Shown: in pieces, positions 5,377 through 55,502 of the stretch
How the letters are laid out: each line of letters opens with the position of its first letter
Position numbering within the stretch: position 1 is the first letter of the stretch
Assembly (NCBI GenBank): GCA_944349415.1
Contig: CALVMX010000001.1
Span: forward strand, 45,677 to 109,676
Reading direction: 5' to 3'
Length of the DNA stretch: 64,000 bases
DNA from: an uncultured Clostridia bacterium
GTDB lineage: Bacteria; Bacillota; Clostridia; Christensenellales; UBA1242
The notes under the pieces: generated by a model
Database searches by the model: none
The model's input: only the letters and a program-made list of their open reading frames with translations
What the model was told of the DNA's origin: nothing
Made by a program: the position numbers and the translations under genes

Positions 5377-5378
5377 TT

Positions 5379-31342: not shown

Positions 31343-31351
31343 GTTTTTCTC

Positions 31352-31873: not shown

Positions 31874-31970
31874 AAAGACCTCTTATTTTGAATTATAACC
31901 ATTAAATAAAAAAAAGTCAAACAGATGCTATCTGTTTTTAAAATTTAATATATCATTTAGTTTCTAACTT

Positions 31971-32429
31971 CTATTTCATCACAAAACCTTCTAGCGAAAA
32001 ACTAGAGGCATATATTCGAGTTCTTTTTGTGATAATGTCCTGACAGAATTCCAGTTCTCCACTTTTAACTGATAAAATCATCAGTTTTAAAGTTAACATA
32101 TTCTCTAATGATATCAAAGACAAAAAACAGTTGGTCGGATTTTCCACATTTTGAAAATTACACTTAGATTTAACATTAAATTTTGCTTCAAAATCTTTTT
32201 CGTTTTGTAGCGTTACATCTTTTAACACTCTACAGTCTAGAAAATCTTTAAGCCTTTCCAAACAAGCCTTAATTTTAGAAAATAATAAACAAATTTCTTC
32301 TAGAAGTAGAGAAAATTCCTCTTCCTCAAGCTTAATGAAAACAAACCCCTTGTTTTTCATTGATTTCGAATAAGCACGAGCTATGTTTTCAAAATTATCC
32401 GCTAATTTGTCATCCTCATAATTTTCCAT
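31971..32429 (-). CDS. Hypothetical cytoplasmic protein (152 aa)
   Basis: Complete ORF; no motif recognised. Confidence 0.5.
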   Translation of the reverse strand: MENYEDDKLADNFENIARAYSKSMKNKGFVFIKLEEEEFSLLLEEICLLFSKIKACLERLKDFLDCRVLKDVTLQNEKDFEAKFNVKSKCNFQNVENPTNCFLSLISLENMLTLKLMILSVKSGELEFCQDIITKRTRIYASSFSLEGFVMK

Positions 32430-32612
32430 ACTTTTTTATATGACAACTACTATTTTTATGACACTCCTAGAAAATATGCAAAAAAAGTGTTTGTATCTAA
32501 AGAGAAAAAATAATGGTAACAAAAAATTTAAAAAAATATAAATCAATAAATCGAGTTATCCACATTTCCACATTTTTCACGTTGCTCTTTCTTTATTAAA
32601 CACATATAATTT

Positions 32613-32647
32613 GAAAAAATAAAAGTAGTAAGCAATGCCTACTACTT
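32613..32647 (-). terminator. Intrinsic terminator after the coupling-protein gene
   Basis: AGTAGTAAGC-AAT-GCCTACTACT hairpin (one mismatch), followed by a U-run on the minus strand. Confidence 0.55.
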
Positions 32648-32694
32648 AGTTAGATAATATTTTAAGCTTTATTCTTATGGTCACACAGCGTATG

Positions 32695-35414: not shown

Positions 35415-36866
35415 TTAAAGGATAGGAGCACCTAAACGATAAACCGCTTGCAAAAATTTAGTATACCATCGTCGCTTTTTGTAATACGCACTGTCAAGCT
35501 TAATGGCGTTTTTAATATCCTCGGCGACAGTTTTCATGTAGCCTTCCGCCACCTCTTGAGAATACATAACAACCGTATTTTCAAAATTCAAAGCAAAAGA
35601 ACGGTTGTCGGTGTTACAAGTTCCGATAGAAATTTTGTTACCATCCACAACAAGCGCTTTAGCGTGCATAAAACCTTCATACAAGTAAACATCGGCACCC
35701 ATTAGCATCAATTCTTGTAAATAGGAAATAGATACGTGGAAAATAGCTTTGTGGTCAGGCTTTTGTGGAATAACTATGATTACTTTTACTCCGCTCGCTA
35801 ACGCAATTTTAATTGCCGACAAGAAACTTTCATCCGGAACGAAATATGGCGATTCGATAACTACATATTTCTTAGCATTGGTTATAAGTTTAATATAGCA
35901 GTCTTTAATTGTTTGCATATTAGTGTCTGGACCAGATGAAATTATCTGTAGACTCGTTTCGCCGACCACATCCACCTTTGGAAAATATCCTTCCTTAACA
36001 TAGTCATCAGGTTTTTTCTCTTCTTTTTTGCAATATCGCCAGTCATTCAAGAAGATGTTTTGTAAGATATAAACTCCGCTTCCTTCCATACGAAGATGAG
36101 CATCTCTCCAAGGTGAACACTTTTTCTTTGTTCCGTAAATATGGTCATCACGAATATTCATCCCACCAGTGTAACCGATTTTTCCATCAATAACCACAAT
36201 TTTGCGGTGGTTACGATAATTCATTTTCAAATTAATTAAACGAATATGCCCAAAAGGCGGGAAGAATTCTGCCACTTCGCCACCAGCTTTTTTTAGTTTT
36301 CTAAAGAAACGTCTTGGAGCACCTAAACATCCGATAGAGTCAAAGATAAACCTAACTTTCACGCCCTCTTTTGCTTTTTTAATAAGGATATCCATAATTT
36401 CTTTTCCTACAACATCGTCAGCAAAAATATAATATTCCATATTGATACTTTTCTTGGCATTCAACAAATCCCTTTTTAAAGCAGATATCTTTTCTGTCCC
36501 CCAACGATAAAACTCTATTTTGTTTCCAGGACAAAGAATACTCCCAAGATTATAGCAACATTTAATAATTCCGGCATCATCAACAAGTTTATCTCTCAAA
36601 TCTTCTTGCATCAAGAGGATATTTTTAATTTCCTCATTATAGTCAAGTTCGTAAAGTTTATGCTTGTTTATCATCTTTCTGGTTCTGTATGAAAGACCGT
36701 TGCCCATAACAATATAGAAGATGTAACCAATAACAGGCAAAACGGTCAAAACAGTCATCCAGCACACAATAGAAGAGAATTTTTTTCTTTCCAAGAATAC
36801 CATGGAAATCAAGAGAAGAAGGTTGATAAACCAAGAACATACATAAACCCAAAACCAAACATTCAC
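35415..36866 (-). CDS. cls: Cardiolipin synthase (PLD superfamily, two HKD motifs)
   Basis: HRKIVVIDGKIGYTGGMN and HAKALVVDGNKISIGTCNTDNRS. Two N-terminal TM helices. The GTG start overlaps the giant gene stop (GTGA). Confidence 0.92.
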   Translation of the reverse strand: MNVWFWVYVCSWFINLLLLISMVFLERKKFSSIVCWMTVLTVLPVIGYIFYIVMGNGLSYRTRKMINKHKLYELDYNEEIKNILLMQEDLRDKLVDDAGIIKCCYNLGSILCPGNKIEFYRWGTEKISALKRDLLNAKKSINMEYYIFADDVVGKEIMDILIKKAKEGVKVRFIFDSIGCLGAPRRFFRKLKKAGGEVAEFFPPFGHIRLINLKMNYRNHRKIVVIDGKIGYTGGMNIRDDHIYGTKKKCSPWRDAHLRMEGSGVYILQNIFLNDWRYCKKEEKKPDDYVKEGYFPKVDVVGETSLQIISSGPDTNMQTIKDCYIKLITNAKKYVVIESPYFVPDESFLSAIKIALASGVKVIIVIPQKPDHKAIFHVSISYLQELMLMGADVYLYEGFMHAKALVVDGNKISIGTCNTDNRSFALNFENTVVMYSQEVAEGYMKTVAEDIKNAIKLDSAYYKKRRWYTKFLQAVYRLGAPIL

Positions 36867-39800
36867 GCTGCTAGTCCCCCGTTTTCTGTTTTAAAAATTT
36901 CGTTTTGTTCTTCTCTTGTCTCCATTCTTGTCATAGACGCTCCGCTTGCCTCCAAAACGTTGGTGTTTTGAATAATTAATATGATTTTTACATAACTTGA
37001 GCCATCATTGAAATATATTTCTTTCAAAATGTAGTTTTGTGCTCTTTCTTCAGTTGTCAAAGTAATAGTGTTGCCGGTAACAGCATTTTCTCCGTTTGCA
37101 TCAAGATAATAAGTTATATATGATGAACTTAAATCAAAGTTTTGTCTTACTTGTGTTGTTATTGTGTTGAGGTCAAAGGTTTGACCTGAAGTCGTGCCTG
37201 AAAAGAAATGTTTTTCACCTAAAGGTTCATTTTGAACAACAAAATTGATGTTTAAAATAGCATATAGAATAAGGTCAGTTTCTGTGGCAGTATCGTATTT
37301 GATATAGTAAACCATATTCACATTTTTTACAAACGGTTTAGTAGCGGTCAAATCGACATTTTCAATTTCTGTTCCGTCAAAACCAGCAACAATACTGTTC
37401 CCTAAATCATCGAACTCATAGAACTTGACTTCAGTATCCTCATATGTAAAACCAGTATAGCTAGCAAGACCAATTTCACGATTGATGTAATCCATTAAAG
37501 CTTCAGTTGTATACACAACAGTTTCGCCGTTCACAGTAAAAGCAAGATCTCCGTTTTCATCAAAAGTGTATAAAGAAATATCTTTTAACGAAATCGCGGA
37601 TTCTAAACTCTCATTAGCTACATAAACTTGGTAGCTTGCTCGAGCCTCCGCACAGGTTATGTTAAGGTCAACACGATAATATTTGTCCGACATGAGCACA
37701 TAGAATTGCCCAGAAACAATGTATTGTCCGTTTGCGTCCACTGTGCTTTCGCCAATGCTGATAACTGTTGCTGAATTCAAGGTATAATTTGAAGAATTGT
37801 AATTCCACCAAGTAAGTTCGGCATCGGTAGTCTCGCCAGTAACTTCTTGAATGGCAGCTTTCGCAATACTGTCTAAATTGCTAAGTTGGAAATAGTTGTT
37901 GTATTGCGTAATAGCATTTACTTCGATGTCATCCGCGAATTTATAGAAGACAATGGTGCATCTTCTATAGGTTGTGGTGTCTCCATGAGTTTGCTCAACA
38001 AAGAATACTCTTGTTGAATTTGTCCAGTCGACAACATTTCCACTAAGACTTGTTTCCATAATCGTATAAGAACTATCAATTATCTCACTAAGCTCATTTA
38101 TCGAATCTACTTCATAAAGCTTGTAAGTATATGTCTCACCTTCTACCGTTCGAGTAAAGGTTCCATTATCTTTGTCATATACAACATCACTATAGCCAAG
38201 CCTATCAAACAAAGTCTCTTCAGAATAGAAACCACTTTCAACATTTAGACTTGCCCATTCGCCAGACACTTTTTGATAAATTGTGAAGTTCAAAGTGTCA
38301 AGATAGATATCATTGTCAGCACCCACAGTGTTGTTAGGTTGACCTGTTCCACTGAGCCAACTTATTGTCCCTGTAACATATTCGCTTAAGTCTGCAACTA
38401 CTCTCCATTCTCCATTAACGTTTTGATACAAAGTCGAAGTCGTTGCGTTGACATAGAATTTGCTTTCATTTTCTGCGGTAGGATCTGCCTCTCCCGTTTC
38501 AAAACTATTGTCGTAAGCAATATCTATAGTTGCAGTGTTTGAACTTAATCCTAAAGCTTCGTTTTCTGTATCTTCTCTAACCCAAGAAGTAATATTGATG
38601 TTAGTTGATGTGTTATAAAGATTAAATTTAACTTCATGTTTAACCAAAGTATTGTTAATAAACACGTAGAAATATTCAGTAACTTCAGTGTTCGCTTGAA
38701 GTGGATAGTTTTTAGTTGTCACAGTTTCATTGTTGTAATTATTGAGTTGATAGAAAGTGCCATTTCCAAGTAAGTTGGAAAGAACATATGTGGTATTAGG
38801 CGCTAACGCAATTTCTTCAGTGGTCTCTAAATGATTATAAACAAAGAATGTAATTCGGTAGAAGAAAATACCACCTTCTTCAACTGCCACAATTTCTTTT
38901 GTTTTTATGCCAGAAATATCACTATCTAAGAATCTATCAAAGGCAATTTGTGTTTCATTTTCCGCCGAAGAATTTCCGTCAATATCAGCCACGATTTGTT
39001 TTCCAGTCTCTACGTCATAGAAAGTTCCAGAAACTTCAGTTGTGCTCATTTCAACATTATAATCTGTAACCGTAGGACTTGCCAATGTCAAAGTGTAAGA
39101 GCTATCGTTTTCAACAAATGAAGAGGTCGTGCCATCAATTTCAGATGTTGTATATTCAGCTGAATAGATATTTGGTGCTTGAGAATTGTAAACTACGATA
39201 TTTGCAGTAAATACTCTGTAACCTATTTGAGAAGTTGGAGCACCATAAGAATCCGTGCCAGTAACATACCTATAAGATTCAACAAACATACTTGTATATT
39301 CTCCAGAAGAAGAATAAGTATAAGAATCTAAGTTGCCGTGATAGATATAATCACTATCTGCATCATCTGCTTGCACAATTCTAAATTCGTTATTGGACAC
39401 CCTATAATAAATTGTGGTTTGTTCTGGAGTTTCGGACTCGTATTGTGTTGTCTTATCAAATCTATTCTCAAAAACAAACGCTTGATTTGTCGGCACTAAA
39501 TACGTTCCAGCACTAGCAACAGAACTTGTTGTCAAAGCTTCAGCCGTTGTATTCGCTCCACCCTTAGCATAAACAGAATCGCCCTCATTTAAGATAATAA
39601 GTGAATTAGACTCTCCAACCATATAAATTCCGGCATCATCAACTATTGGTTTTTCCTCATCTTCTGAAGTATTTCTTAAAGTAAATGTGATAGGTGTGCT
39701 GTTGAGTAGGATTCCGTCAGTATCACTATAAAGTCCGTCAATACCAGAAACTCGCATATATACGTAAATTCTGACTGTATCTGATTCAATGTTGAAATCT

Positions 39801-42800
39801 TCGTTTGTTGTCACAGTTCCGTTTGCGTCTATTGTTGCGCCAGCCTCAATTTGATAGGTAAAGATGTATGGCATATTTGCTATTTGATGTGCGTTATTAT
39901 AAGTTTGTCTTTCCTCTTCTCCAGCAAGGAAAGTGAAGTAACTTGTGTAATTAATTGAAGGATTCTTGTTTGAAACATCTGCTGATGTTCCATTTTTTCC
40001 TGCCCAACTTGTTGGCGAAATAACATAGTATGTCCTCTCAGCACTTGTTCCCTCATTTGTCTTAACTTCATAATAAGAATCTACTATATAGTCATGAGCC
40101 GAAGTTAAGTTTGCAGAAATTGAACGGAAGTGAGGATAAAGTCTGAGCGAGCCTGTTTGTTGATAGAATTCCGTTTCGTTTTCCGAACCGTCGTTATAGA
40201 CAATTTCGGCTATAGAATAGATGTATCTTGTTGCATAACCGGAAGAATTTAATTCGTCTACATCTTCTATATTAAGCTCTATAGATGCAGGATTTTCAGG
40301 AGCGGTATAGCTTTCGCCAACTCCACCAAATTGTTGAAGTGAGAATGTGTAGTCGTCAGTTTCACTTCCAGAAAGGATAGAATTGCTTGAATACTTAACG
40401 TTATAGGTTGTGCCACTTGTCACATTTCTAATGTAAATGGTGTAACTTGTTTGTAAGGTGTCCGTTCCAGCGTTGCTGTTTGTGTAAGTCTCACTATTCG
40501 AAATTCTAATTTGTTCTCTATGATCATAATTTCTGCTGTTTGTTAAAGTAACATAGTTAAGGTCGGTTGTGCTTGTTCCAGAAGGAGCAATAGCATATTG
40601 TAATGAACCACCGGCACTGATTTCGATTTCAATGGTGTCGTTGTAAACAACAATACTTTCTACATTATCGTCTGTCTCAATGGTCGCATCGAAATCATCC
40701 ATTGTAATTTCTTCAGTATCTATAAAGTTTTGAGTATCTAGCGAACCATAACTGCTCCTAATAATTGTCAGAGACTGTCTGATTTGTGCCAAACTTGGAG
40801 CTAAATCTCCAGAAATTGCTAAAGTGTCAGAAGTTTCAGTTGTAAGGGTAACCACCATAACCACATTTTCCAGCGTTGTTGAATCGCCATACAACTTACC
40901 TGAGAAGTGAGGTATCGTGAAAGTTTCATCTCCTGGGTTTGATGGGCTGCTGACAACACCATTATTATAAATGTAAGCTCCACTGGTCATGGTTGAAGTT
41001 CCAACAACAAGGTCTTGTTTTTCATTATAAAGCGAATTGCCATTAAGCCCATAAGTTTCATCGCTATTAAGATCCACATATTCCACAATTTCGCCATTGT
41101 ATTCAAACCAAATGCTAGCAATTTTAATCTCGCCAAGATTAGATTCTGCATTGTAGTTTGTTTCGCCACTAAAGGAGTATTGACTTACCGCTGGAATAAT
41201 ATTTGTGTTGTAAACATTTGCTGTAAGTCCTGATAGAGTAAGTTGAAGAGCGACATCTGAGCCATAAGTTGGAGTTTGTGCGGTTGCCGATCTCACAAAA
41301 CCGTCTGGTGACACAATTGTTGCACTTCCTGCCATCTTCAAACCAAAGACAAGTCCATCTGTTGAAAGTTCAGTTATTTTTTCTCTTATACTCGTTTTAA
41401 GATTTTCGTCTTCTATCTTATTAATTGCTTCATTAATAGCGTCTTCGCCATCATTTCCGAGATAGTTTATATAAACATTATAGGTCAAAATGTTTTGATT
41501 TGTCGGAATTTCTTTAAAAACTGAGGTTGCATAGTAAGTCGTTGTTGTGACTTGTTCGCCTTCTACTGTCGATGTTTCAGTTATAGCATAAACATACACA
41601 ATTTCAAAGATTTCACTATAAATTGCTGCATCAGAAGATGAAGAAGCTGTCACATAACCATTTGTATTGCTAGAATCTGCTACTATCAGGCTTACATCCT
41701 CTAAAGTAGAATCACAATTTATGGTGTATGAATAGTCATAAGCCCAACCATTGTATGATGTTATTTCATTCTTTGGTCGTTCAACATTTGAAAGTGTTCC
41801 ACCATTCAAAGTAACATTGTAATAAGTTGAACCGACCTCTGCTTGAGAGCCTTCTATAACTGTTGTGCTGTTGATATTTGATATAAGAGGAGTGATGTCC
41901 GCCTGAACTCTGAAGTAAATTCGCACTCTGTAGCCGAAACTATCTATTGCATCAATGTAATAGTCCTTATCTCCAATACTTACATCATCAACACCAAAGG
42001 CAATAGATCCATTCGATGTGGTTGCAGCATGTGTCCTTTGATCCTCTCCTATAACCCACCCAGCAGTAGCAGAATTGCTTGGATCATTAAAATTAATTGT
42101 AGACATATAACTGTTATATTCTGCTTGAGAATCATTAACAACAAAAGTATAATTAAAGGTGTAGCCGAGATTATTACCGTTTAATAATGCTTGCCAAATT
42201 GGATAGATACTATCGTCATTGCTGTAAAGATATTGTGTTCTGTCTGTCACCTCTCCAGTTGATCTTGAAATTATATAAGGATTTCCTGCGGTGTTGGTTG
42301 CGACCGCTGTTGTCTCGCCATCAACAACTTCCATTTCTTCTATAATTGCGTCTGTATATTGTGTTCCTTCCGAAGTATTCTTAAAGGATACATCATAAGA
42401 CGGCATAATAAGAAATCTTAAATTTGCACTCACATCAACTGAATGTTCGTGTTCTATATCTAAATAAGTTGTGTAAGTTATTTTTACTAATATAAAGTTT
42501 CCGTTAACCGGCGCACCTCTTGGTGTAATCTGCCAGTCTGAACCATAATCGTCACCAGCGTTCAAAGAAGCATAGTTGGAGTCTTGTGTTTGATCGCCAC
42601 CGACTAAACCATTAGTCAAGACAGCACCATATCTTGGGAGAATACCTGTGTTATATGCTCCTTCTCGCAGTTCTTGATGAATGGCCCAAGCTTCTTGCTC
42701 TAACGGATCGGAAGAATTTGCTATAATTTGAGCATCACCAAATCCATATAATGTCACATTAAGACGACGATTTGAGGTTATATCACTTGAAGTAAGTAAT

Positions 42801-45800
42801 TCTCCTGTTTTAGCATCTCTGATACCTAAAGTTGCAAAATCTAAAATACTAACATCGCCTTCATCTACGTAAACAACTTCATAGTGACTTGACGCACTTG
42901 TTGTGACTTCAAACTGAACGTTAAGTTGAATACGATATGTGTTGTTTGTATCTATTATATTATCACTAATTATTGTTTGGTCAGTTTCAGCGTCTCCGAT
43001 CACACCGTCAATATCATTAACTAAATCATAGCCAACGCTATATTGTGTGATATTTGCCACCTGATCAGCATCAAAAGTAACATTATCCATACTTATGAAG
43101 CTTTCTTGACTGCCAGCTGACAAAACAGGTTGTCCGTCTTCATCAAAGATTTCCGAAAGACTTAAAGCATTTGTATTATTTTGAGCATCGTCTGCAGAAG
43201 TAAAGATTCCGACAAAAGTGTAGCTTCCAAGAGAAGTTAGACCTCCACCAAGTATATCTGTGTGTTCAACACGTTCTGTAGTGTTAAATTCATGAGATAT
43301 AACTTTCACTCTATCACTTTCAAGTTCTGCATCTTCATCTTCAAATCTTAAATAAAGAGTATTTTCTAAATTGGAACCTTGATCTAATTTAACAGTATAA
43401 GTCAATGTGTCGACATTTGAACGTGTGCTAAAGGTTGGTTGATTTTCTACTGCAGTAAATATGAAAGTTATTTCATCATCAATAGTATCATTTTCATCAA
43501 GTGTGCCTTCTTGAGCGCCTTCTTGACTTTCAAAAATACCGTCATATACATAGCCAGTTAAATCTTGATCGATTATTTCAGTAAATTTCCCAATTCTAAA
43601 TTGTAGAGGAATAACTATAACATCGCTATCATCGCTTGAATTTACAAATCTAATGTAATACATTTCATCTACATAGCCGTCGCCATCTTCATCTATATCA
43701 ATTTGAGTTGTTGTTTCATCCCCTTCCTCGCCACTTGTAACATTATAAGAGTCACCTTCAATATTATAACTCAAGGTATAGATAGTTTCTTCTTGAGTGT
43801 CAAGTGTAGGCTCTACTGTAAATAGATTTGTCACTTTTGCTTCCATATTTTCGGCATTCGCACGAGAGCGATAAGTGCCTTCATATGCATAACCCTCTAA
43901 ATCTGCATCAAGCTCGTCAGTCACTTGTTGTCCTGTCAAATTTTGGAAAGAGTGAGTAATTATAACATAGTCTGATGTGGTCAAACTGTCAAATCTAAGA
44001 TAGAACAATTCATCCTCTTCAAAGGTGACGCCATATTTAAGAGTATAAGTTATAGTTGGATTTATTCTTTCTGAAAGTTTGATTTCTGCAATATCGCGAC
44101 TGACTTCATAGCCTGCATACAATAACACAATTCTATTTGTTATTTGTGGCTGATAGCTAAACATAGCTGCCCAGTCAAGTGGACTTGTTCCAGCATAAGC
44201 TGCTGAGCGATTTGTATAAATTCCGTTATAAATAAAGCCTTCATAAGACCTGCCTAAGTCAACCACTGCGTCAGTGCCAGAAGAATTTGCTTGAACTTCA
44301 TAAACAAGCGGATCTTCTGAACTACCTTCTGGAGCATCATATCTAATATAATAAGTTCCAGAAGCACTATTTAAGAAATTGTATTTCAAAATTCTTCCAT
44401 ATTTAAACAATCTATTATCACTATAAGTCGAAATATCTTCTGCAAATACCTCCTCATAGTCTTCTACACGTGTAATCATGTTCGTTTCCATGGTTACTGT
44501 GCTATTATTGTTTACTATTACAGTGTAAGTTTGTGTCACGTTGTTGACTGTTAAAGTAAACACCACACTACCAGTTGTGCCTGTGTTGACAAGAGAGAAT
44601 TTCAAATTCATTGAGGCAAGACCATTGATAACACTTTTTCCGTCATCACTTAACGTTCCACTTCTAAGCGATTCTATAGGTTCTGTGTAAGTGTTGGCAT
44701 TGTTAACTAAGAGACTGACATTTTGAATTTCGCTTATATCAAGAGTGTAACTATAATCATAATTATTTACAAATGAACCCTCACTTTCTGCTGTATCCAT
44801 TCTTTCGATATAGAATCTTGAATTTGCGCCTGTATGTGTAAAGCTTGCTGCTGTATTGAAGAAGTTTGTAATCTCTTTATTGTTATCTACATATTCTGCT
44901 TCAAGCATACTGTTTGCTTTTTCTTCATCAGACATTTCTTCCACATAACTTGGAGTTGGATAGTTGGCACTTATTTTAACATTTGGCTCTACAGCAAAGA
45001 TATAATTTAAATTGAATGTGAAAACAACGTTGCCATTAAATCTGTATTGCACCACTATTTCTTCCACATATTCCTCCATCGTTTCTCCGACGGTTGGAAC
45101 AGTGATAGTATATGTGGTTGTTCCATTTTCAAAAGCAAACGCATCCAATGGATTTTCTGCATCTTCGTCTCTAAATGAAATTCCTGTGCTTACATTGTTA
45201 AAATATCTTTCAAGTGCTTGATAAAGATAACTATCTTGCTCATGAAGGTTGAGTGTAATTTGATTTTGAGAATATCTGATTCCTTCTTGTCCTACACTTT
45301 CTTGGTAGGTCAATGTTTGTCCACTTGAAATCGCACCAGAAGCAGTGAAACTCAATGTGAAATAGAAACGATAAAGTATCTCTTGAGTTGACTCAATAGC
45401 ACTTTCTGTAATTGGATATTCGCCCTCATCGTTTATTGCAATATAGAATACGTCAATTCTAGTAAGAGTTGTTCCTTCTCCGGAATCTCCTTGAACAACT
45501 AGTTCATTATCTAAATCTATTTTTAAGTAATTAACATCTTGAAGATTTTCATCTTGGAAAGTTACAGTCGAATAAGTGAATCCTTGAAGAGTAATAGGCT
45601 CAATGCTATCATCAGTTCTATAAATTTGAAGTTGTTGACCTAATGTTTCAGCATTGTCCTCCCATATAGTAGTGCCATTTGCGATAGTCAAAGTATTTTC
45701 TGACACAATATGTTCCGCCTTAATTTGAACTTGGAGCCCTTCTTGCATATGTGCGACTTGGAAAGTGCGACCGTCCTCAGCAATTTCAAAATGCACATCT

Positions 45801-48800
45801 TCATCTGTTTGCCATTCCTCTTGACTTGCTGTTTTATAGGCAACCTCTTCAAAAGTAAATTGATTTGTAGTTGAATCTAATAGAACACTTTCTCCTTTGG
45901 TTATTCCGCTCACGAAGTCAGTGATATCGTAGTCTCTTCCACCTATTACCTCTTCGCCAAAGTTTTCAGCATAAGTAATGTCGTATCCACCATCCATATA
46001 GAAAGTAATTTCAAAAATGTTGAGATAAGAAGTGTAGAATCCTATTCTAAACATGCCGTCTTCAGAAATTGCTTCGCGAGTTAGGAAAGTTAAACTGTAA
46101 ACACCATTTGAGCCTGCTCCTCTGAAGTCAAAATAGCCCACTTCCTCTTCTGGAAGGAAATAAAGTGTTGGAGTTTCAGCGTCATCACTACTCAATGTCA
46201 CAATATATCCGTCAACTGAAACATCTTCTATCGTGAATTGGTATTTGCTCACTATGCTTACAAATAACCTACCGTCTGAAACGCTTTCATTATTATTCAT
46301 ATCAACTAAAATATAGTTTCCTACATTTTCTGCGGTTATTGTGCTTTGTTCACCCAAAACATATTCTTCTTCCAAGCCTTCTTCTGCTAGTGATACTGTG
46401 TAAAGAGTGTCACCTTCGACCAGTTTAACAAATTCATATAAGTAAGAGCTTATCTCTCCTTCATTGTCACCTATTTCAATGTTTTCTGCAAAGGTTACAT
46501 GTGCAAAGAGGTCGGTGACAGGATTATAAATATCTCCCACCTGTTCTTGAACGGTTACAGTGTAACTATATTCTTCACTTATTGTTACCCCGTCATCGTA
46601 AAAACCTAAGTCGTCAGTCTCTAGAGACTCGCCTGAATCTTTTGTCACATTATAATGATACTCTGGTATACCAGAATTATAGATAATAGTATAGATCCTT
46701 TCAGATTTTATGACTTCTACGTGTTCGCTTATTAGGTCTCCTTCAGCGGTATACATGGTCAAATCATAATATTTTGCCACTCTTATTGTTATTTCTGCAG
46801 TCGTATCAAGAATATCGACGAATAATCGTCCTCCATTACTGTCTAATACAATTTGTAGATAAGACGAGTAATCAGTCATTGAGGTTCCGTTTACGACAAC
46901 ATCATAAATATAATATCTTCCCCAGGATGTTTTTTGTCTTGTATCTCCTTCAGGTATACTTTCTGGAATCTCCACAAGTTTAGCAAAACGAGAGCCACCA
47001 ACTTTAGAAGTTGAAGCATTTTTAGAAGTAAACTCTTCTTCAAAATTTATTTCAAAATGGCTATCATCCATATATTCAGCGTCATCATTGTATGGATACA
47101 TAACATCATCTAAAGTATAATTAGGTTTTATCAAAATTCTATAATACATTACATATGTAATTGTTCCTGAAAGATTTTGTGTCAAAGTTAATTGTAAAAT
47201 AGCGAAAACATCCTCGCCAGTCTCAACTGACGAATTTAGTGTGATATCATTTCCGCTTACACTAATAATATTTTCATAGCCTTCAGTCACAGAGTAAAGA
47301 GATAGGCTGCTTGATATGTTTCCACCTGTTGCCGTATTTCTATAATAGAAACCATATTGCTGATTTTCGCTAGGGTTTTCAACTGTGTCTTCATCATTAA
47401 CCTCGTAAACTATTGTGTAGGTATTTCCTGCGTAATATTCGTCATAAATATTTTTTTCTGCCATGTTGTTGAAAAAGGCTTGAAGACCAGTATCGCTAGT
47501 TTCATCTGTTGTAATATCATCAAAAGCAAAATATGTATCATCTCCATTATAATTTTCTTCATAAGCAACATAAACTAAACCTATTTTAGAAAGATTAAGG
47601 TCAATATAGATTATATCTTCCGAATTGTAAACAAATTCTATAGATTCGGATACGTTGAACAATGAAAGTTGGCTAACAGACAATGTGCTATCGAGAACAG
47701 AAATATATGAAGATGTTTCGTTAACAGCCCAATTTGCGTTTAAAGTATAATTTCCATATTCCAAAAATACAAGAACATATTTGCCATTATTCTCAAGCAC
47801 GCGATAGTCGTCGCAATCCTCATCAGTGCTATCAATTATCACACTAATAACAGCTTCGGCGTCTTTTGCATAACCCACCGAGAAATACATGGTTGAACAT
47901 TCACTTTCTAATAATTGATGTTCACTGTCGAAAAGCAAGAACTGGAATGGATTATTAGAGTTTTCTGTGTCATATAAACTAATGTTTGAGTTGATTAAAG
48001 CACCAAGATTTCCAACATAATTTCCCGCCTTGTTAATCGCAAAATCTTGAACTGTTAAAATTGAACCCTCGGAACTACTAAAACTTAAGCCTAAATTAGT
48101 ATCAAAAGCAATAACTTCTGGATCTTCAACCGTCGAATTTAAGATATAACGATCAATATATTCTTTTGCATTATATACTTCATAATAATAGCTTAATAAA
48201 GTGTTATTGCCTGTCGCTAAATCTTGGAGGTCGACAAAATCTTGATTTTGAACTAAAACATAGTTTGGATTTATAACAAAACCTAAATCAATTCGCAAGG
48301 TATAATCATTTTCACTATTATAATACAGTGTCAACTGCACAACGGTCAAAGTTTTAACATCCCCAAAGTTTAATGTTGCTTGATTGCCTTCTCCAGAACT
48401 TCCTAACCAAACAAGGTCGCTAGTTGACTGATTATTAACCGACAAAATAGCAGTCCCGCCAGTTTGACTATTATATGTCCATGACAAATCCTCTGCTCCA
48501 CTAGTATTATAGAAATAAGATATTGGAAGATAATCATCAAGGATAATACTGTCACCGCCAAATACTAACTTACTAGCTCTTGTTCCAATATCGCCATAAG
48601 TAAGATAATCTTCATACGGTTCTGAATAGGAATTAATATTATCTATATAACGAATATTTTGTAATATTACTATTGTCAGTTGTATGTTGATTAAGCCATA
48701 TTGGTCATACACATCAAACACAAGAGAGAATCCCTCTTCTGTGGCAAATAAATAATTGACATGAATAACGCTAATATTTTGAGAATTGTAACTTAAAATA

Positions 48801-51800
48801 TTTGCACCTTCTCCCGCAGCATCTTGTAAACGAAGCATGCCGTCGGTCCCGTCAGCCTGACTGAACAAAGCAGCAGTGGCATCATTGCCTAGTCCTGCCA
48901 AATAATCAGAATTTAGTCTAAAGGACAAATAGGTTTCATCTTTATTTATATAGTTATTCTCATCGTCAGCAGTATCGCCTACCCAAACACGAATTATATC
49001 ATTTAATACGATTTCGTCATTCAAAACCAAATATTTTGAAACTGTTCCTTGAGCTAAAGAACCTGATACATAATTATGCTCTTGTGAATCGGTAGAATTA
49101 TCATAATCCACACGGCTCACACCTGCGCCATAGATTTCAAAATTAACATTTTCAGGAGCAATTTCTTCTCCCAAATCGGTTGAGTAAATTGAGGAAATAT
49201 TTGCCGTAATATAAGTATTTATTGTTTCGCCACCCGTCGAATTAAAGCCGGTTATTTCATTATTGACAATATTAATGTATCTATTTGTTCCCTCTAGACC
49301 TTCTCGCAGAGTGTAGGAAGCAGCATCAGTATAAATCACTTTTCCATATTGGTCGAAAATGACAACACTCAAAAGTTCAGAGATTTGCTCAAGTGCGGTC
49401 AGACCTTGTGCAATGTCTACAATATCAATGGTTCCATCAGTTGTGCTTGTCCATTCAATCTCCCTTGTTCCGTCTTTGGAAATATTTACATAAACAGGGC
49501 CGTTTGTAGCATATTGAGTATTATTATAAACAAAATTGAACTCAGAGTCCACCGCAAGTTGAGCATAAACGGTAAATCCCGCAAATTCTTGCCCTTCATA
49601 ACTTACTGTCATCTCTTTTTCTTGCAAAGTTCTTCCATTATAATAAACTAAGTATGGAGTGTAGAGAACACCATCAGTATTGTCAAAATCTTCCGAAATT
49701 GTAACACTTGCAGTTCCAGTAATAGTGTCCGTGCCAGTGAAGGACATGGTGCTAATATCAAAATAATTACGTTCCACATCATCTTCATCTAGATATGTGC
49801 TTAAATTTCCATTTTCGTCTCTAAATTCCACTCTTAAATATCCAGAAGAAGCTTCGCTATCGCTTAAGCCTGCATTGTATAAATCTTGAAGCTCGTTTGC
49901 AGTTATCATATTTGCAGTTGCGTTATTCAAAGTGATAGTGATTTCAAACGTATCACTTTGACCCAATTCGTCGGTATAGAATAATGCCGGAATTATCAAT
50001 TCATTTTCTTGTGTATCTTGATTTTGAACGGTAAATTGACCATTAACAGCTGAGCTAAAACCAGCCTCGCCTACCATATCTTCAAATTTTAATGTAGCAT
50101 CAACCACCAAGGCTCTTGGCATACTTACAAGGACAAAATCATATTTGTCGCCACTTTGATATGCTTCGCCATCGCTGTTTAAAATAACACCGTCGGCATT
50201 TGTTCTGACAGTTGCAAACACTAAATTTATATCCATGTTCAATGGTCCAATGGCCGACAAGTTGGCATCGTTAAGCTCATATAACCAAACTTCACTTACC
50301 GAACTGTTTAAACCGGATAACGAAATATCTTCGCCAATAGTATACAATACACTAGACCTATATTCCAAAGAGGTAGAAACATCAACTTGTGCACCCGTTG
50401 GAGAATAGAAGAAATATCTTACAGTTTGGTAAACATTGTCCGTTGGCAAATTTATTTCCTCGGACAAATCCACAGTATCAGAATTCCCAGCGTCACTGTC
50501 GTATACTATGGTAATTCTTGAATCATCATTCCAGAAAATATTTTCTTCTTGATGCACTTGGAAATTGATAACAATAGATGGAAGTGAGTTGAAATTGTTA
50601 CCATTTGTAAAGAAAATTTCCCAACCGTTCTCGCCTTCAACAAACAAAGCAGCTTTAAAACTAGCCTCTCCTTCTTCGGTAGAAGCAAATTGATATTGAT
50701 AGTTTGCTGCACTAGATGAGGTGCTAGTGCTTGGCAAAACAAAGTAATAAGTGGTTATCGTTCCGTTTTCTATTTCCTCCACTGTAGGAGCATAACTATT
50801 CAAACTGCTGTAGCTTTCTTCTGTAATAGCGTAAGAATAAGTGGTCTCACCAGCAATATTGAGCGAAGTCACTTCCACTCTCATTAATCTTTCGCCGTTG
50901 ATTTTTATAGAGGCGTTATCATCAAGTAATGCTATACCAACATTGCCTGCGTAAATTGAGTTTAAGCTGTTTCCTTCATCATCACGAATAGCGACACCTA
51001 AACTTCCATCAAAAATGGAAGAACTTGAGTTAGAAGAAAGATTCAAATATCTGTCAACAACTGCGTCATCAAACTGAGTATTTGAAACACTGAAACTCTC
51101 CACTCCAACATCTTTAACCGTAACATTTATTTCACAACTGCGATAAGATTCTGGATTACTACTAAAATAATTGATCGCCAACTGATTTAGGGTGGCAAAA
51201 TCAGTAATAGTCGAATTTGCACTCAAAAAGGCTTCTTGATAACTTGCTGAATAGAACGTATAGAGTCTAATTGTATCGCTATATCCTTCATCAGTCACTC
51301 CTGTTGCTGTGAAAGTTTGCGTTTCATAATCAAAGGTTATGTAATTATTGGTTGGCTCATAGAATATCATTTTACTTTCTGTTCCACTATACATAAATTC
51401 ACTACTGTTTCCTGTTTCAGTGGAATCTGGAGTGAAATTTACTTTAACCTTAAATTGAGAGCCGTTGACAACCTCGTTGTCTACAAGTTGAGTCATGCCC
51501 TCATCACCAGAATCATAAACATATGCATCTATTTCATAAACTGGCACGTCAACAGCAATAGTGGTGGTAATTGGAGAGATAAGTCTGTTCTCTGATGTTG
51601 CGCGAAGAGTGGTAATACCACCATTTATGTATTCTGAACTCGTATAATCATTGTAAGAGGTAGACAAACTAACAAGAAAAGGTGTGTTTAATCTAACAGT
51701 TTGTGGAACACGAATAATGCCATTGTCAATGTAACCATTTTCTGCCACAGTATTACCAAGAGAAAGAGTAATATTGCTAACATTAGCACCTTCGGTAGAA

Positions 51801-52027
51801 GTTGTGATCGTCAAATAAAAATCTGCAGAAACCTCATAAGTTCCTGTTTCCGCATTATAATTTTCATCTTGAACAAAATTTATGTTTTCAGGATTTATAA
51901 TCTCTTCGTTAAAATATCCTAAAAGATACATAACAAAAGTGGAAACTCCTAAAAGACCGATAATGGCAGCCATTGTTATAAGCACAACTTTCCAAGTCGC
52001 CAAGACTTTTCTTTTTCTCTTACTCAT
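36863..52027 (-). CDS. Giant N-terminally membrane-anchored surface protein (5054 aa)
   Basis: Single uninterrupted 15.2-kb ORF. GAGGT RBS upstream of the ATG at 52027. MSKRKRKVLATWKVVLITMAAIIGLLGVSTFVMYLLGYF is a signal anchor. The rest is T/S/N/Y/D/E-rich with internal repeats. I saw no LPXTG motif or known wall anchor. Confidence 0.85.
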   Translation of the reverse strand: MSKRKRKVLATWKVVLITMAAIIGLLGVSTFVMYLLGYFNEEIINPENINFVQDENYNAETGTYEVSADFYLTITTSTEGANVSNITLSLGNTVAENGYIDNGIIRVPQTVRLNTPFLVSLSTSYNDYTSSEYINGGITTLRATSENRLISPITTTIAVDVPVYEIDAYVYDSGDEGMTQLVDNEVVNGSQFKVKVNFTPDSTETGNSSEFMYSGTESKMIFYEPTNNYITFDYETQTFTATGVTDEGYSDTIRLYTFYSASYQEAFLSANSTITDFATLNQLAINYFSSNPESYRSCEINVTVKDVGVESFSVSNTQFDDAVVDRYLNLSSNSSSSIFDGSLGVAIRDDEGNSLNSIYAGNVGIALLDDNASIKINGERLMRVEVTSLNIAGETTYSYAITEESYSSLNSYAPTVEEIENGTITTYYFVLPSTSTSSSAANYQYQFASTEEGEASFKAALFVEGENGWEIFFTNGNNFNSLPSIVINFQVHQEENIFWNDDSRITIVYDSDAGNSDTVDLSEEINLPTDNVYQTVRYFFYSPTGAQVDVSTSLEYRSSVLYTIGEDISLSGLNSSVSEVWLYELNDANLSAIGPLNMDINLVFATVRTNADGVILNSDGEAYQSGDKYDFVLVSMPRALVVDATLKFEDMVGEAGFSSAVNGQFTVQNQDTQENELIIPALFYTDELGQSDTFEITITLNNATANMITANELQDLYNAGLSDSEASSGYLRVEFRDENGNLSTYLDEDDVERNYFDISTMSFTGTDTITGTASVTISEDFDNTDGVLYTPYLVYYNGRTLQEKEMTVSYEGQEFAGFTVYAQLAVDSEFNFVYNNTQYATNGPVYVNISKDGTREIEWTSTTDGTIDIVDIAQGLTALEQISELLSVVIFDQYGKVIYTDAASYTLREGLEGTNRYINIVNNEITGFNSTGGETINTYITANISSIYSTDLGEEIAPENVNFEIYGAGVSRVDYDNSTDSQEHNYVSGSLAQGTVSKYLVLNDEIVLNDIIRVWVGDTADDENNYINKDETYLSFRLNSDYLAGLGNDATAALFSQADGTDGMLRLQDAAGEGANILSYNSQNISVIHVNYLFATEEGFSLVFDVYDQYGLINIQLTIVILQNIRYIDNINSYSEPYEDYLTYGDIGTRASKLVFGGDSIILDDYLPISYFYNTSGAEDLSWTYNSQTGGTAILSVNNQSTSDLVWLGSSGEGNQATLNFGDVKTLTVVQLTLYYNSENDYTLRIDLGFVINPNYVLVQNQDFVDLQDLATGNNTLLSYYYEVYNAKEYIDRYILNSTVEDPEVIAFDTNLGLSFSSSEGSILTVQDFAINKAGNYVGNLGALINSNISLYDTENSNNPFQFLLFDSEHQLLESECSTMYFSVGYAKDAEAVISVIIDSTDEDCDDYRVLENNGKYVLVFLEYGNYTLNANWAVNETSSYISVLDSTLSVSQLSLFNVSESIEFVYNSEDIIYIDLNLSKIGLVYVAYEENYNGDDTYFAFDDITTDETSDTGLQAFFNNMAEKNIYDEYYAGNTYTIVYEVNDEDTVENPSENQQYGFYYRNTATGGNISSSLSLYSVTEGYENIISVSGNDITLNSSVETGEDVFAILQLTLTQNLSGTITYVMYYRILIKPNYTLDDVMYPYNDDAEYMDDSHFEINFEEEFTSKNASTSKVGGSRFAKLVEIPESIPEGDTRQKTSWGRYYIYDVVVNGTSMTDYSSYLQIVLDSNGGRLFVDILDTTAEITIRVAKYYDLTMYTAEGDLISEHVEVIKSERIYTIIYNSGIPEYHYNVTKDSGESLETDDLGFYDDGVTISEEYSYTVTVQEQVGDIYNPVTDLFAHVTFAENIEIGDNEGEISSYLYEFVKLVEGDTLYTVSLAEEGLEEEYVLGEQSTITAENVGNYILVDMNNNESVSDGRLFVSIVSKYQFTIEDVSVDGYIVTLSSDDAETPTLYFLPEEEVGYFDFRGAGSNGVYSLTFLTREAISEDGMFRIGFYTSYLNIFEITFYMDGGYDITYAENFGEEVIGGRDYDITDFVSGITKGESVLLDSTTNQFTFEEVAYKTASQEEWQTDEDVHFEIAEDGRTFQVAHMQEGLQVQIKAEHIVSENTLTIANGTTIWEDNAETLGQQLQIYRTDDSIEPITLQGFTYSTVTFQDENLQDVNYLKIDLDNELVVQGDSGEGTTLTRIDVFYIAINDEGEYPITESAIESTQEILYRFYFTLSFTASGAISSGQTLTYQESVGQEGIRYSQNQITLNLHEQDSYLYQALERYFNNVSTGISFRDEDAENPLDAFAFENGTTTYTITVPTVGETMEEYVEEIVVQYRFNGNVVFTFNLNYIFAVEPNVKISANYPTPSYVEEMSDEEKANSMLEAEYVDNNKEITNFFNTAASFTHTGANSRFYIERMDTAESEGSFVNNYDYSYTLDISEIQNVSLLVNNANTYTEPIESLRSGTLSDDGKSVINGLASMNLKFSLVNTGTTGSVVFTLTVNNVTQTYTVIVNNNSTVTMETNMITRVEDYEEVFAEDISTYSDNRLFKYGRILKYNFLNSASGTYYIRYDAPEGSSEDPLVYEVQANSSGTDAVVDLGRSYEGFIYNGIYTNRSAAYAGTSPLDWAAMFSYQPQITNRIVLLYAGYEVSRDIAEIKLSERINPTITYTLKYGVTFEEDELFYLRFDSLTTSDYVIITHSFQNLTGQQVTDELDADLEGYAYEGTYRSRANAENMEAKVTNLFTVEPTLDTQEETIYTLSYNIEGDSYNVTSGEEGDETTTQIDIDEDGDGYVDEMYYIRFVNSSDDSDVIVIPLQFRIGKFTEIIDQDLTGYVYDGIFESQEGAQEGTLDENDTIDDEITFIFTAVENQPTFSTRSNVDTLTYTVKLDQGSNLENTLYLRFEDEDAELESDRVKVISHEFNTTERVEHTDILGGGLTSLGSYTFVGIFTSADDAQNNTNALSLSEIFDEDGQPVLSAGSQESFISMDNVTFDADQVANITQYSVGYDLVNDIDGVIGDAETDQTIISDNIIDTNNTYRIQLNVQFEVTTSASSHYEVVYVDEGDVSILDFATLGIRDAKTGELLTSSDITSNRRLNVTLYGFGDAQIIANSSDPLEQEAWAIHQELREGAYNTGILPRYGAVLTNGLVGGDQTQDSNYASLNAGDDYGSDWQITPRGAPVNGNFILVKITYTTYLDIEHEHSVDVSANLRFLIMPSYDVSFKNTSEGTQYTDAIIEEMEVVDGETTAVATNTAGNPYIISRSTGEVTDRTQYLYSNDDSIYPIWQALLNGNNLGYTFNYTFVVNDSQAEYNSYMSTINFNDPSNSATAGWVIGEDQRTHAATTSNGSIAFGVDDVSIGDKDYYIDAIDSFGYRVRIYFRVQADITPLISNINSTTVIEGSQAEVGSTYYNVTLNGGTLSNVERPKNEITSYNGWAYDYSYTINCDSTLEDVSLIVADSSNTNGYVTASSSSDAAIYSEIFEIVYVYAITETSTVEGEQVTTTTYYATSVFKEIPTNQNILTYNVYINYLGNDGEDAINEAINKIEDENLKTSIREKITELSTDGLVFGLKMAGSATIVSPDGFVRSATAQTPTYGSDVALQLTLSGLTANVYNTNIIPAVSQYSFSGETNYNAESNLGEIKIASIWFEYNGEIVEYVDLNSDETYGLNGNSLYNEKQDLVVGTSTMTSGAYIYNNGVVSSPSNPGDETFTIPHFSGKLYGDSTTLENVVMVVTLTTETSDTLAISGDLAPSLAQIRQSLTIIRSSYGSLDTQNFIDTEEITMDDFDATIETDDNVESIVVYNDTIEIEISAGGSLQYAIAPSGTSTTDLNYVTLTNSRNYDHREQIRISNSETYTNSNAGTDTLQTSYTIYIRNVTSGTTYNVKYSSNSILSGSETDDYTFSLQQFGGVGESYTAPENPASIELNIEDVDELNSSGYATRYIYSIAEIVYNDGSENETEFYQQTGSLRLYPHFRSISANLTSAHDYIVDSYYEVKTNEGTSAERTYYVISPTSWAGKNGTSADVSNKNPSINYTSYFTFLAGEEERQTYNNAHQIANMPYIFTYQIEAGATIDANGTVTTNEDFNIESDTVRIYVYMRVSGIDGLYSDTDGILLNSTPITFTLRNTSEDEEKPIVDDAGIYMVGESNSLIILNEGDSVYAKGGANTTAEALTTSSVASAGTYLVPTNQAFVFENRFDKTTQYESETPEQTTIYYRVSNNEFRIVQADDADSDYIYHGNLDSYTYSSSGEYTSMFVESYRYVTGTDSYGAPTSQIGYRVFTANIVVYNSQAPNIYSAEYTTSEIDGTTSSFVENDSSYTLTLASPTVTDYNVEMSTTEVSGTFYDVETGKQIVADIDGNSSAENETQIAFDRFLDSDISGIKTKEIVAVEEGGIFFYRITFFVYNHLETTEEIALAPNTTYVLSNLLGNGTFYQLNNYNNETVTTKNYPLQANTEVTEYFYVFINNTLVKHEVKFNLYNTSTNINITSWVREDTENEALGLSSNTATIDIAYDNSFETGEADPTAENESKFYVNATTSTLYQNVNGEWRVVADLSEYVTGTISWLSGTGQPNNTVGADNDIYLDTLNFTIYQKVSGEWASLNVESGFYSEETLFDRLGYSDVVYDKDNGTFTRTVEGETYTYKLYEVDSINELSEIIDSSYTIMETSLSGNVVDWTNSTRVFFVEQTHGDTTTYRRCTIVFYKFADDIEVNAITQYNNYFQLSNLDSIAKAAIQEVTGETTDAELTWWNYNSSNYTLNSATVISIGESTVDANGQYIVSGQFYVLMSDKYYRVDLNITCAEARASYQVYVANESLESAISLKDISLYTFDENGDLAFTVNGETVVYTTEALMDYINREIGLASYTGFTYEDTEVKFYEFDDLGNSIVAGFDGTEIENVDLTATKPFVKNVNMVYYIKYDTATETDLILYAILNINFVVQNEPLGEKHFFSGTTSGQTFDLNTITTQVRQNFDLSSSYITYYLDANGENAVTGNTITLTTEERAQNYILKEIYFNDGSSYVKIILIIQNTNVLEASGASMTRMETREEQNEIFKTENGGLAA

Positions 52028-52067
52028 ACCTACCTCACACAATTATTTGTTAATATTAAACAAAGTA

Positions 52068-52096
52068 ATTATACTATTTTTTTGTAGTTTTCGCAA
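52068..52096 (-). promoter_or_regulatory. Sigma-A type promoter of the giant gene
   Basis: On the minus strand: TTGCGA (52096..52091), a 17-nt spacer, TATAAT (52073..52068). Confidence 0.5.
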
Positions 52097-52209: not shown

Positions 52210-52238
52210 TTGACAAACACGTGATTAAAAGTTATAAT
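52210..52238 (+). promoter_or_regulatory. Consensus sigma-A promoter of the ABC-F gene
   Basis: TTGACA (52210..52215), a 17-nt spacer, TATAAT (52233..52238). The leader is about 120 nt. Confidence 0.6.
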
Positions 52239-52363
52239 AAAAAAGGATTACAAAAAAGAAAATTTAGAGAAAATTATTAAAAATATTAAAACATTAATGA
52301 TTTTTTTAAATTTTTTGTCAATTTTTTAACGATTTTTTTATTTTTTTAATTTTGGAGGAAAAT

Positions 52364-55010: not shown

Positions 55011-55502
55011 TTATTCCGCTTGTGCATGCTCATTTAAAACACAAATTGAAAATGTTTCAGATGTGAGATCATCATTGCAACTATATCTAAAATAAAAATT
55101 ATTACCTTCAAAATATCCATGGTTGCCAAAATTTTCAAATACTAATTGAATAACTGGATCATTATTTAATTCTTCAATATTAAATGTTACATAACCATTA
55201 CTGTTTACTGTATAAGTCCCAGTGCTTGTTGTTTCATCACGTAATGAATAAGCTTCAACGGTCCCGTCTTCGTTAAATGTAAAATTAAAGCGCACAAAAA
55301 ATATAATTTCTCCTCTTGCATCTTCATAACTCATGTCATTATTACCATTGGCATCTGAAATTCTCACGCCGTAATATTCATAAGTGCCATAAGTCATTTG
55401 ATATGGATCTCCGCCACATCCGGCAAGCAATAGCATTGATGAAACTAAAAGCATTACTGCTATTATTGCGCTTACTATTACTTTTGATTTTGTTTTTGTC
55501 AT
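55011..55502 (-). CDS. Lipoprotein of unknown function (163 aa)
   Basis: Signal peptide plus lipobox LLLAGCGG. Confidence 0.8.
   Translation of the reverse strand: MTKTKSKVIVSAIIAVMLLVSSMLLLAGCGGDPYQMTYGTYEYYGVRISDANGNNDMSYEDARGEIIFFVRFNFTFNEDGTVEAYSLRDETTSTGTYTVNSNGYVTFNIEELNNDPVIQLVFENFGNHGYFEGNNFYFRYSCNDDLTSETFSICVLNEHAQAE

Follow-up and report, generated by a model that had tools for sequence, protein, structure and literature searches.

Several systems of large or multidomain surface proteins are known from Firmicutes. Ebh of Staphylococcus aureus is based on helical repeats and has a C-terminal membrane anchor. Proteins of the SbsB/SbsC type have about 900-1100 amino acids and a cleaved signal peptide, and are anchored to the wall by S-layer homology (SLH) modules or by binding to secondary cell wall polymer. 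At the time of their discovery, the giant extracellular proteins of Apilactobacillus (Lactobacillus) kunkeei had no similarity to database entries and no recognisable SCOP domains; they account for a large part of a small genome (PMC4494060). They occur as arrays of tandem paralogues and have a signal peptide, a conserved C-terminus of 60 residues and EbhA-like similarity (PMC4494060). We analysed a stretch of 64,000 nt from an uncultured Clostridia bacterium (assembly GCA_944349415.1, contig CALVMX010000001.1, positions 45,677 to 109,676 of the forward strand), which is called the window in the following. It harbors a giant gene for a protein of 5054 amino acids, followed by cls, the gene for cardiolipin synthase. 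The protein appears to be of a known kind, a giant bacterial surface protein of immunoglobulin-like (Ig-like) domains.

The giant gene and its relatives

The initial annotation had described one uninterrupted open reading frame (ORF) of 15.2 kb, coding for 5054 amino acids and occupying about 24% of the window, and this was confirmed for positions 36863-52027 of the minus strand. The frame is open without interruption over 36863-52042, and the gene comprises 15,165 nt (23.7% of the window) from the ATG at 52027 to the TGA at 36865-36863. This ATG lines up with the start codons of all orthologues, which begin with MSKRKRK or MKKKRK. The gene and its leader have the following features:

36863-52027, minus strand: giant gene, 5054 amino acids plus TGA stop, 562.7 kDa, pI 4.05
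52032-52036, minus strand: ribosome-binding site (RBS) GAGGT, 9 nt upstream of the ATG; GGGGT or AGGAG in orthologues
52046-52064, minus strand: palindrome TTTGTT-TAATATT-AACAAA between the -10 hexamer and the RBS, kept in most close orthologues
52068-52096, minus strand: promoter-like TTGCGA-17-TATAAT, matching the consensus at 10 of 12 positions; present at the equivalent place in 10 orthologous loci

The promoter of its own and the GAGGT RBS that had been proposed for the gene were both present. The AT-rich spacer contains five such promoter matches (2.6 +/- 2.0 expected), and a single match is not beyond chance. The -35/-10 pair of the giant gene was kept at an equal distance from the start codon in 10 orthologous loci, and most orthologues have the extended -10 form TGTATAAT. 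The DNA directly 5' of the ATG reads GAGGTAGGT. The palindrome in the leader may serve as an operator or fold into a hairpin.

When one genome per GTDB species was scanned, nine loci were obtained, all labelled uncultured Clostridia bacterium except for one Christensenella sp. Eight of these loci have complete ORFs for 3904-4732 amino acids, and the products could be aligned with the window protein over the entire length at 33%-57% identity. Using a profile of residues 1-1200, we searched 1.84 billion representatives of clusters at 50% identity exhaustively with HMMER and obtained 153 proteins at E <=1e-3; 82 of them were longer than 3000 amino acids, ranging from 3119 to 5670. Word-indexed searches with residues 1-1700 and 1-400 returned just four fragments, the index evidently containing or retrieving few giant proteins. 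Members with only 20%-25% identity were still collinear, and invariant residues were spread along the full length. In an alignment of 85 sequences, the shared core corresponded to residues 1 to about 4100 of the window protein, with lineage-specific insertions at about 1800-2000, 2100-2300, 2650-3000 and 3400-3600. Shorter family members stop near residue 4100. The best conserved part is the transmembrane (TM) helix together with residues 46-260, and distant members share mainly residues 1-400. The window protein has both features of the family, the polybasic/TM N-terminus with the module of residues 46-260 and collinearity over more than 3000 residues together with an adjacent cls gene. No description of this family was found in a literature search.

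At the close loci, the proteins encoded by the neighbouring genes abcF and proS and by cls are 74%-96% identical and that of the SDR gene 72%-79%, compared to 33%-57% for the giant protein. At distant loci the values are 78%-88% for abcF versus 22%-30% for the giant protein. By this measure the giant protein diverges far faster than its neighbours, in a way that points to surface-type evolution. The comparison of loci indicates that the giant gene is vertically inherited and syntenic, that it has a sizeable unnamed family, and that this family is confined to one lineage of uncultured gut-type Clostridia. The lineage-wide vertical synteny and the size of the family, like the operon with cls described below, go beyond the initial annotation.

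The first extracellular domain of the family was also detected in P0142, a protein of 842 amino acids (residues 553-663, E 1.4e-10), which in addition carries BspA-type LRR_5, Listeria-Bacteroides repeats and an S26/S24 peptidase-like stretch. BspA-type leucine-rich repeats and Listeria-Bacteroides repeats are typical modules of surface proteins.

We also considered whether the gene is an artefact, that is, an assembly chimera, a non-functional frame or a pseudogene. The source is probably a metagenome-derived genome, and one orthologue, L001, has an in-frame TAG at 9172-9174, after codon 974, with homology resuming in the same frame beyond it. Against an artefact, 5054 stop-free codons would occur by chance with a probability of about 1e-160 at this base composition, and the GC content is even along the ORF. 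No tandem or dispersed DNA repeats were detected in the gene, so that there is nothing in it to mislead an assembler. Its codon usage is native, with a correlation of r = 0.93 to the other window genes in relative synonymous codon usage; codon bias is average (effective number of codons, ENC, 43.6) and gives no indication of the level of expression. The promoter, the RBS and the start codon are all conserved. Chimerism had been raised as an objection in the initial annotation, and it is contradicted by the collinear full-length orthologues in dozens of independent assemblies. We concluded from these comparisons that the 15.2-kb gene is real and coding, and we regard the probability of an artefact as negligible.

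Anchor, domain structure and proposed role of the giant protein

The following regions were distinguished in the protein, all encoded on the minus strand:

51989-52027, minus strand: residues 1-13, polybasic N-terminus MSKRKRKVLATWK, predicted on the cytoplasmic side from a presumed positive-inside orientation
51920-51988, minus strand: residues 14-36, sole TM helix (signal-anchor) by hydropathy; helix at residues 11-35 in the AlphaFold2 (AF2) model
51248-51892, minus strand: residues 46-260, hallmark N-terminal module of the family with invariant G136 G137, D160, P162 V163 and P200
48608-51892, minus strand: residues 46-1140, about 10 beta-sandwich (Ig-like) domains, all unlike, by AF2 and Foldseek
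43148-44389, minus strand: residues 2547-2960, internal repeats of about 115 amino acids each with about 25% identity, mostly an insertion absent from most members
36866-39730, minus strand: residues 4100-5054, variable distal C-terminal region, common to close relatives only

As the initial annotation had stated, the N-terminal signal anchor is the sole hydrophobic segment. Kyte-Doolittle windows above 1.6 were confined to residues 7-40, which include the stretch VVLITMAAIIGLLGVSTFVMYLL. The helix looks like an uncleaved anchor, since it is 23 residues long and no AXA-type cleavage site follows it. By the positive-inside rule, the protein would be a signal-anchor protein with its N-terminus inside and its bulk outside the cell. 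A hydrophobic segment at the N-terminus was seen in each of the 82 full-length family members (>3000 amino acids), and in a minority of them short windows further inside the chain also exceeded the cut-off.

A count of residues bore out the described richness in Thr (10.5%), Ser (9.3%), Glu (8.2%), Asn (8.0%), Tyr (7.3%) and Asp (7.2%). The protein has 776 Asp and Glu versus 221 Lys and Arg residues, resulting in a net charge of about -552. Compared to the remaining 37 ORFs of the window, Lys is rare (1.9% versus 9.2% of the residues), as is Cys (0.12% versus 1.3%). All of the 82 long family members are acidic, with 12%-16% Asp+Glu, 4%-10% Lys+Arg and less than 0.7% Cys. Composition is uniform per window of 250 residues up to the C-terminal end. 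N-glycosylation sequons are in weak excess (94 versus 79 +/- 7 expected). The same Lys-poor acidic bias was seen in three other ORFs on the minus strand, those at 62636-63937 and 11584-12171 and that of a predicted lipoprotein at 55011-55502 (lipobox LLAGC), which have 1.8%-4.6% Lys compared to the window mean of 9.2%. This suggests that the secreted proteome of the organism is generally lysine-depleted and acidic. An extracellular placement of the giant protein fits the Lys- and Cys-poor acidic bias, as this bias is also present in the neighbouring predicted lipoprotein.

With a family alignment of 35 sequences, the AF2 model of residues 1-1200 reached a mean predicted local distance difference test (pLDDT) value of 82.8; with an alignment of only 4 sequences the pLDDT was 41 and the model was unusable. 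The helix at residues 11-35 is followed by about 83 short strands and a few short helices, with about 105 residues per domain. The resulting string of about 10 beta-sandwich domains bears out the prediction of a beta-rich protein. Foldseek found 72 matches in the PDB at E <1e-3, all to chains with Ig-like domains and at 6%-11% identity. The top match was 7r5k_10, a chain of 1831 residues from the human nuclear pore (E 4e-16), and the counterpart from Dictyostelium was also matched. Further matches were giant chains of the sperm axoneme central apparatus, contactin, desmoglein, alpha-2-macroglobulin and complement proteins, as well as the S-layer protein SbsB (4aq1_A, E 5.8e-12), the Ig-like domains of PrgB (E 2.5e-8) and domains of antigen I/II. 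The viral library BFVD gave 145 matches at E <1e-3 (Ig, DUF11, BACON and tail proteins). According to the model, residues 46-1140 have an Ig-like fold.

Sequence profiles contributed little to this assignment. With both halves of the protein and E <=0.1, Pfam returned only a sub-threshold Ig_mannosidase match (E 0.056, 13.6 bits versus a cut-off of 22.6), and no match to SLH, CWB2, choline-binding, Big, cadherin, cohesin, dockerin, carbohydrate-binding module (CBM) or FN3 families. Pfam gave nothing significant for 12 diverse family members, and NCBIfam and PHROGs had zero matches in the giant protein. The motif scan detected no LPXTG (LP.TG, NP[QK]T[NG]), YSIRK, RTX (GGxGxD) or lipobox motif, and the hydrophilic C-terminus ends with ...KTENGGLAA. 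The remark of the initial annotation that LPXTG, choline-binding, S-layer-homology and RTX motifs are missing was thus correct by motif scan and Pfam. It had also mentioned clear homology to a described adhesin family as an objection; none was seen with Pfam, NCBIfam or PDB sequence profiles. A search of PDB sequences with the whole-family profile of the close group (A3) gave no match. The profile of the distant group (A8) gave a sole marginal match, the S-layer fragment 4uid (E 3.5e-4), which covers a Big-type 'DQYG' strand motif at about residues 888-960 of the window protein.

The protein had been described as not obviously made of a single repeated module, and this holds: self-BLAST and profile-profile comparison (61 tiles, 1770 pairs) revealed weak repeats at residues 2547-2960 alone. 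Composition is uniform and no other kind of domain was matched, and from this we extrapolated the fold of residues 1200-5054. The remaining protein would consist of the same kind of domain, with about 40-45 domains overall.

We consider it somewhat probable that the protein is exported by Sec and anchored in the membrane by its N-terminus, and that it forms a giant surface fibre or coat, a chain of Ig-like domains. The polybasic N-terminus and the hydrophobic helix would act as an uncleaved signal-anchor, and Sec would thread about 5000 residues outward. The exported part would be a chain of unlike Ig-like domains, each conserved position by position between species. The membrane-proximal 4100 residues or so would form a conserved stalk or scaffold, and the distal 950 or so a variable, exposed and interacting end. 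An Ig-like domain has a length of about 4 nm, and the extended chain would measure about 150-200 nm, well past the Gram-positive wall. Given this reach, the protein could provide a fibrillar, strongly negative, Lys- and Cys-poor outer coat for contact or adhesion and for spacing. The initial annotation had spoken of a beta-rich extracellular fibre or adhesin; the beta-rich part of this statement stands, and the words fibre or adhesin are still presumptive.

The same data allow the chain to be placed along the surface rather than away from it. In this case the protein would be a putative envelope lattice or S-layer substitute, a cation-bridged acidic layer tethered to the membrane, with specific contacts made by every one of the unique Ig-like domains, similar to SbsB or the membrane ring protein of the nuclear pore. 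This is possible, although we doubt it. The non-repetitive domains, each conserved between species over about 4100 residues, would suit a lattice, and so would the single-copy, strictly syntenic, core-gene-like gene with its strong conserved promoter and RBS. Scaffold chains of the nuclear pore and the axoneme rank top in the Foldseek search, SbsB is among the matches, and the sole PDB sequence match is to an S-layer protein. The acidic, Thr/Ser/Asn/Tyr-rich make-up also fits, as such a composition is typical of S-layer proteins. On the other hand, Pfam detected neither SLH nor CWB2 nor another known lattice module, a subunit of 563 kDa would be very costly at the abundance of an S-layer, and the ENC of 43.6 indicates no more than average codon bias. 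Fast sequence evolution and the variable distal end also speak against a lattice, and the structural matches are generic for Ig-like chains at 6%-11% identity.

The variable C-terminal region bears on another explanation, by which the Ig-like domains are a stalk that delivers a toxic or catalytic C-terminal domain, as in polymorphic toxins or giant carbohydrate-active proteins. The last 950 or so residues vary between lineages like those of polymorphic toxins, and three quarters of the protein lie outside the structural model. The profile of the C-terminal region (A10) found no relatives of residues 4100-5054 outside the close group in the word-indexed protein search, in which giant proteins are evidently scarce or seldom retrieved, and no match among PDB sequences. 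For the window protein there was no Pfam, NCBIfam, PHROGs or significant PDB sequence match anywhere, and nothing significant by Pfam in the 12 members; the one marginal PDB match, that of profile A8, is to an Ig-like S-layer domain. No small immunity-like gene lies behind the giant gene, the next gene always being cls, and the composition stays uniform up to the C-terminal end. An effector is, on this evidence, very unlikely.

The operon with cls and the neighbouring genes

The genes next to the giant gene are:

35415-36866, minus strand: cls (cardiolipin synthase), TIGR04265, 425 bits
34772-35323, minus strand: gene for a soluble protein of 183 amino acids, after cls, kept in the closer sub-lineage only
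52352-53938, plus strand: divergent ABC-F ATPase gene (abcF), with a perfect TTGACA-17-TATAAT at 52210-52238

The GTG start codon of cls overlaps the TGA stop codon of the giant gene as GTGA, and a GGGGG RBS for cls lies within the end of the giant gene. The cls protein had no match in an exact look-up, probably on account of the GTG start. No terminator was found between the two genes. The order abcF - giant gene - cls, with abcF divergent, was present in all 12 loci that reach past the stop codon of the giant gene, including three distant members with GC contents of 34%-42%. The abcF gene neighbours the giant gene across the whole family (78%-97% identity), and the SDR gene and proS come next. 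We concluded that the giant gene and cls form a conserved operon, in which the giant gene comes first.

Metagenome contigs were searched with a cls profile, and the upstream DNA was inspected at the 60 best loci. A giant ORF precedes cls in all 15 loci at which cls reaches 50% or more identity to that of the window and has at least 1 kb of upstream DNA. The giant frame fills essentially all of the available upstream DNA at these loci, up to 3333 codons, and in 14 of the 15 it stops 0-63 nt before cls. The exception is L024, where the frame is interrupted near its end, 129 codons before cls. Among loci with a cls of at most 41% identity and inspectable upstream DNA, none had a giant ORF. Three loci have giant ORFs (L031, 3-9935; L033, 2-9976; L032, 2-4207) before a cls that is 50%-51% identical to that of the window. 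The products of L031 and L033 are remote family members (profile E ~1e-40) and extend about 1000 residues past the usual C-terminus of the family, and that of L032 had no profile or BLAST match. Some of the contigs with the pair of giant gene and cls are labelled human gut metagenome.

For the surface fibre or coat that we favour, the giant gene would be transcribed from its own conserved promoter and would be translationally coupled to cls. Cardiolipin stimulates SecYEG, as known from work in E. coli. The cls gene could plausibly supply anionic lipid for the polybasic/TM anchoring or for the Sec export of a long acidic chain. We infer both this reason for the cls link and the adhesive or coat role.

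Several observations weigh against the favoured reading. The AF2 model covers residues 1-1200, and the fold of the other 76% of the protein is extrapolated. Single-copy synteny, positional conservation over about 4100 residues and the lack of near-identical spacer repeats are unusual for adhesins, and suit a structural scaffold at least equally well. No recognisable ligand-binding tip domain was detected by Pfam or by the C-terminal profile searches. The cls linkage could be mere inherited gene order within one lineage. The in-frame TAG in L001 and the possible break in L024 imply that the gene is dispensable in some populations, or that there are assembly errors; these interruptions could reflect pseudogenisation, strain variants or assembly errors.

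A more far-reaching idea is that the giant protein and the coupled cls form a dedicated envelope module that defines the surface architecture of the lineage, which we offer as speculation. It is equally conjectural that a non-repetitive Ig scaffold of 0.4-0.6 MDa, tethered by its polybasic/TM anchor in locally made cardiolipin, makes up the outer layer of the cell and replaces the conventional SLH-type S-layer. If true, the Gram-positive envelope would here be organised in a new way, and the protein would be more than another adhesin.

An apparently small, low-GC genome devotes 15 kb to the giant gene, in a lineage that occurs in human gut metagenomes, and the family is unnamed, is not covered by Pfam or NCBIfam models and lacks a relative of solved structure. 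Giant bacterial surface proteins can, by this example, apparently be built without duplicated modules. About 4000 residues of unlike Ig-like domains have retained their order despite deep divergence, which suggests a separate role for each domain. The constant coupling to cls provides a testable connection between membrane lipid synthesis and the way in which a very large acidic protein is anchored or exported. For annotators, the gene can serve as a lineage marker, and ORFs of 10-17 kb should not be dismissed as errors.

A gene for a VirD4-like coupling protein (CD1115 family) is present at 32695-34701, 2 kb downstream of the giant gene, together with three genes for small, mostly membrane proteins (block 30497-34701, minus strand). 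The giant protein could in principle be a PrgB-like mating adhesin of a type IV secretion element that includes this VirD4-type coupling protein, as the Foldseek match to PrgB Ig-like domains (E 2.5e-8) might suggest. That match is generic for Ig, no further type IV secretion gene was seen in the window, and codon usage is native at a conserved chromosomal position. The VirD4 block is absent downstream of cls in relatives with 9-10 kb of downstream DNA and is also absent in distant members. It has no relation to the giant gene, and a mating adhesin is highly improbable. The block may stem from a conjugative element, either as a remnant or as an insertion.

Another large protein, of 1252 amino acids, is encoded at 16079-20962 on the minus strand, directly downstream of an AAA+ ATPase gene and with small ORFs upstream; it has only a faint match to the GLUG motif and is not similar to the giant protein. 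A tRNA-Ala(TGC) gene stands alone at 25283-25359 on the plus strand, with nearly all genes around it on the other strand.

Comparison with known systems

In overall structure, the giant protein resembles chains from eukaryotic scaffolds. The nuclear-pore and axoneme chains (7r5k chain 10 and 9ijj; Foldseek E 4e-16 to 7e-13) are likewise long single chains of many unlike Ig-like domains without detectable internal repeats. We take them to be NUP210 and hydin-type proteins, respectively. The nuclear-pore chain, if it is indeed NUP210, presumably also has one membrane-spanning helix, with the anchor at the C-terminus instead of the N-terminus. These chains differ in being eukaryotic, in size and in sequence (7%-8% identity), and the TM-scores are low because the inter-domain geometry differs; homology to the giant protein is not implied.

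Among bacterial proteins, LapA, SiiE and BapA, which are RTX proteins of type I secretion systems, and the LPXTG proteins SasG/Aap, PrgB and antigen I/II share the architecture of an Ig-like surface fibre. They have near-identical tandem repeats and RTX/type I secretion or LPXTG signals, and the giant protein has none of these. Assignment to an established class was tried and rejected in each case. An LPXTG protein of the MSCRAMM type was dismissed as there is no sorting motif or YSIRK, the C-terminus is hydrophilic and the helix is apparently uncleaved. A type I secreted RTX adhesin would not fit the lack of GGxGxD, of a Pfam match and of tandem repeats beyond the one weak insertion. For a PrgB-type conjugative adhesin, the chromosomal synteny across the lineage and the restriction of the VirD4 gene to the vicinity of this genome's copy were decisive. 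A cellulosomal scaffoldin was rejected because Pfam detected no cohesin, dockerin or CBM. The Big, cadherin and FN3 families of the E-set clan gave no Pfam match above threshold, although the fold of residues 46-1140 is Ig-like by the model.

The Geobacillus proteins SbsB (4aq1) and 4uid, which we take to be SbsC, are surface proteins of a Firmicute and are acidic with consecutive unlike Ig-like domains, like the giant protein. In contrast to these S-layer proteins, the giant protein has a membrane anchor, is five times longer and lacks SLH; an S-layer protein of the SLH type was rejected since Pfam found no SLH, CWB2 or other wall-binding module.

The closest conceptual parallel in Firmicutes is provided by the giant extracellular proteins of A. 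kunkeei. These and Ebh of S. aureus are, like the giant protein, lineage-specific, very large and extracellular. By their descriptions they differ from the giant protein, which is encoded in single copy and in an operon with cls, has its anchor at the N-terminus and is predicted to have an Ig-like fold. What sets the present protein apart is thus the combination of an N-terminal membrane anchor, the lack of duplicated modules, a syntenic gene that is conserved from end to end, and the obligatory operon with cls.

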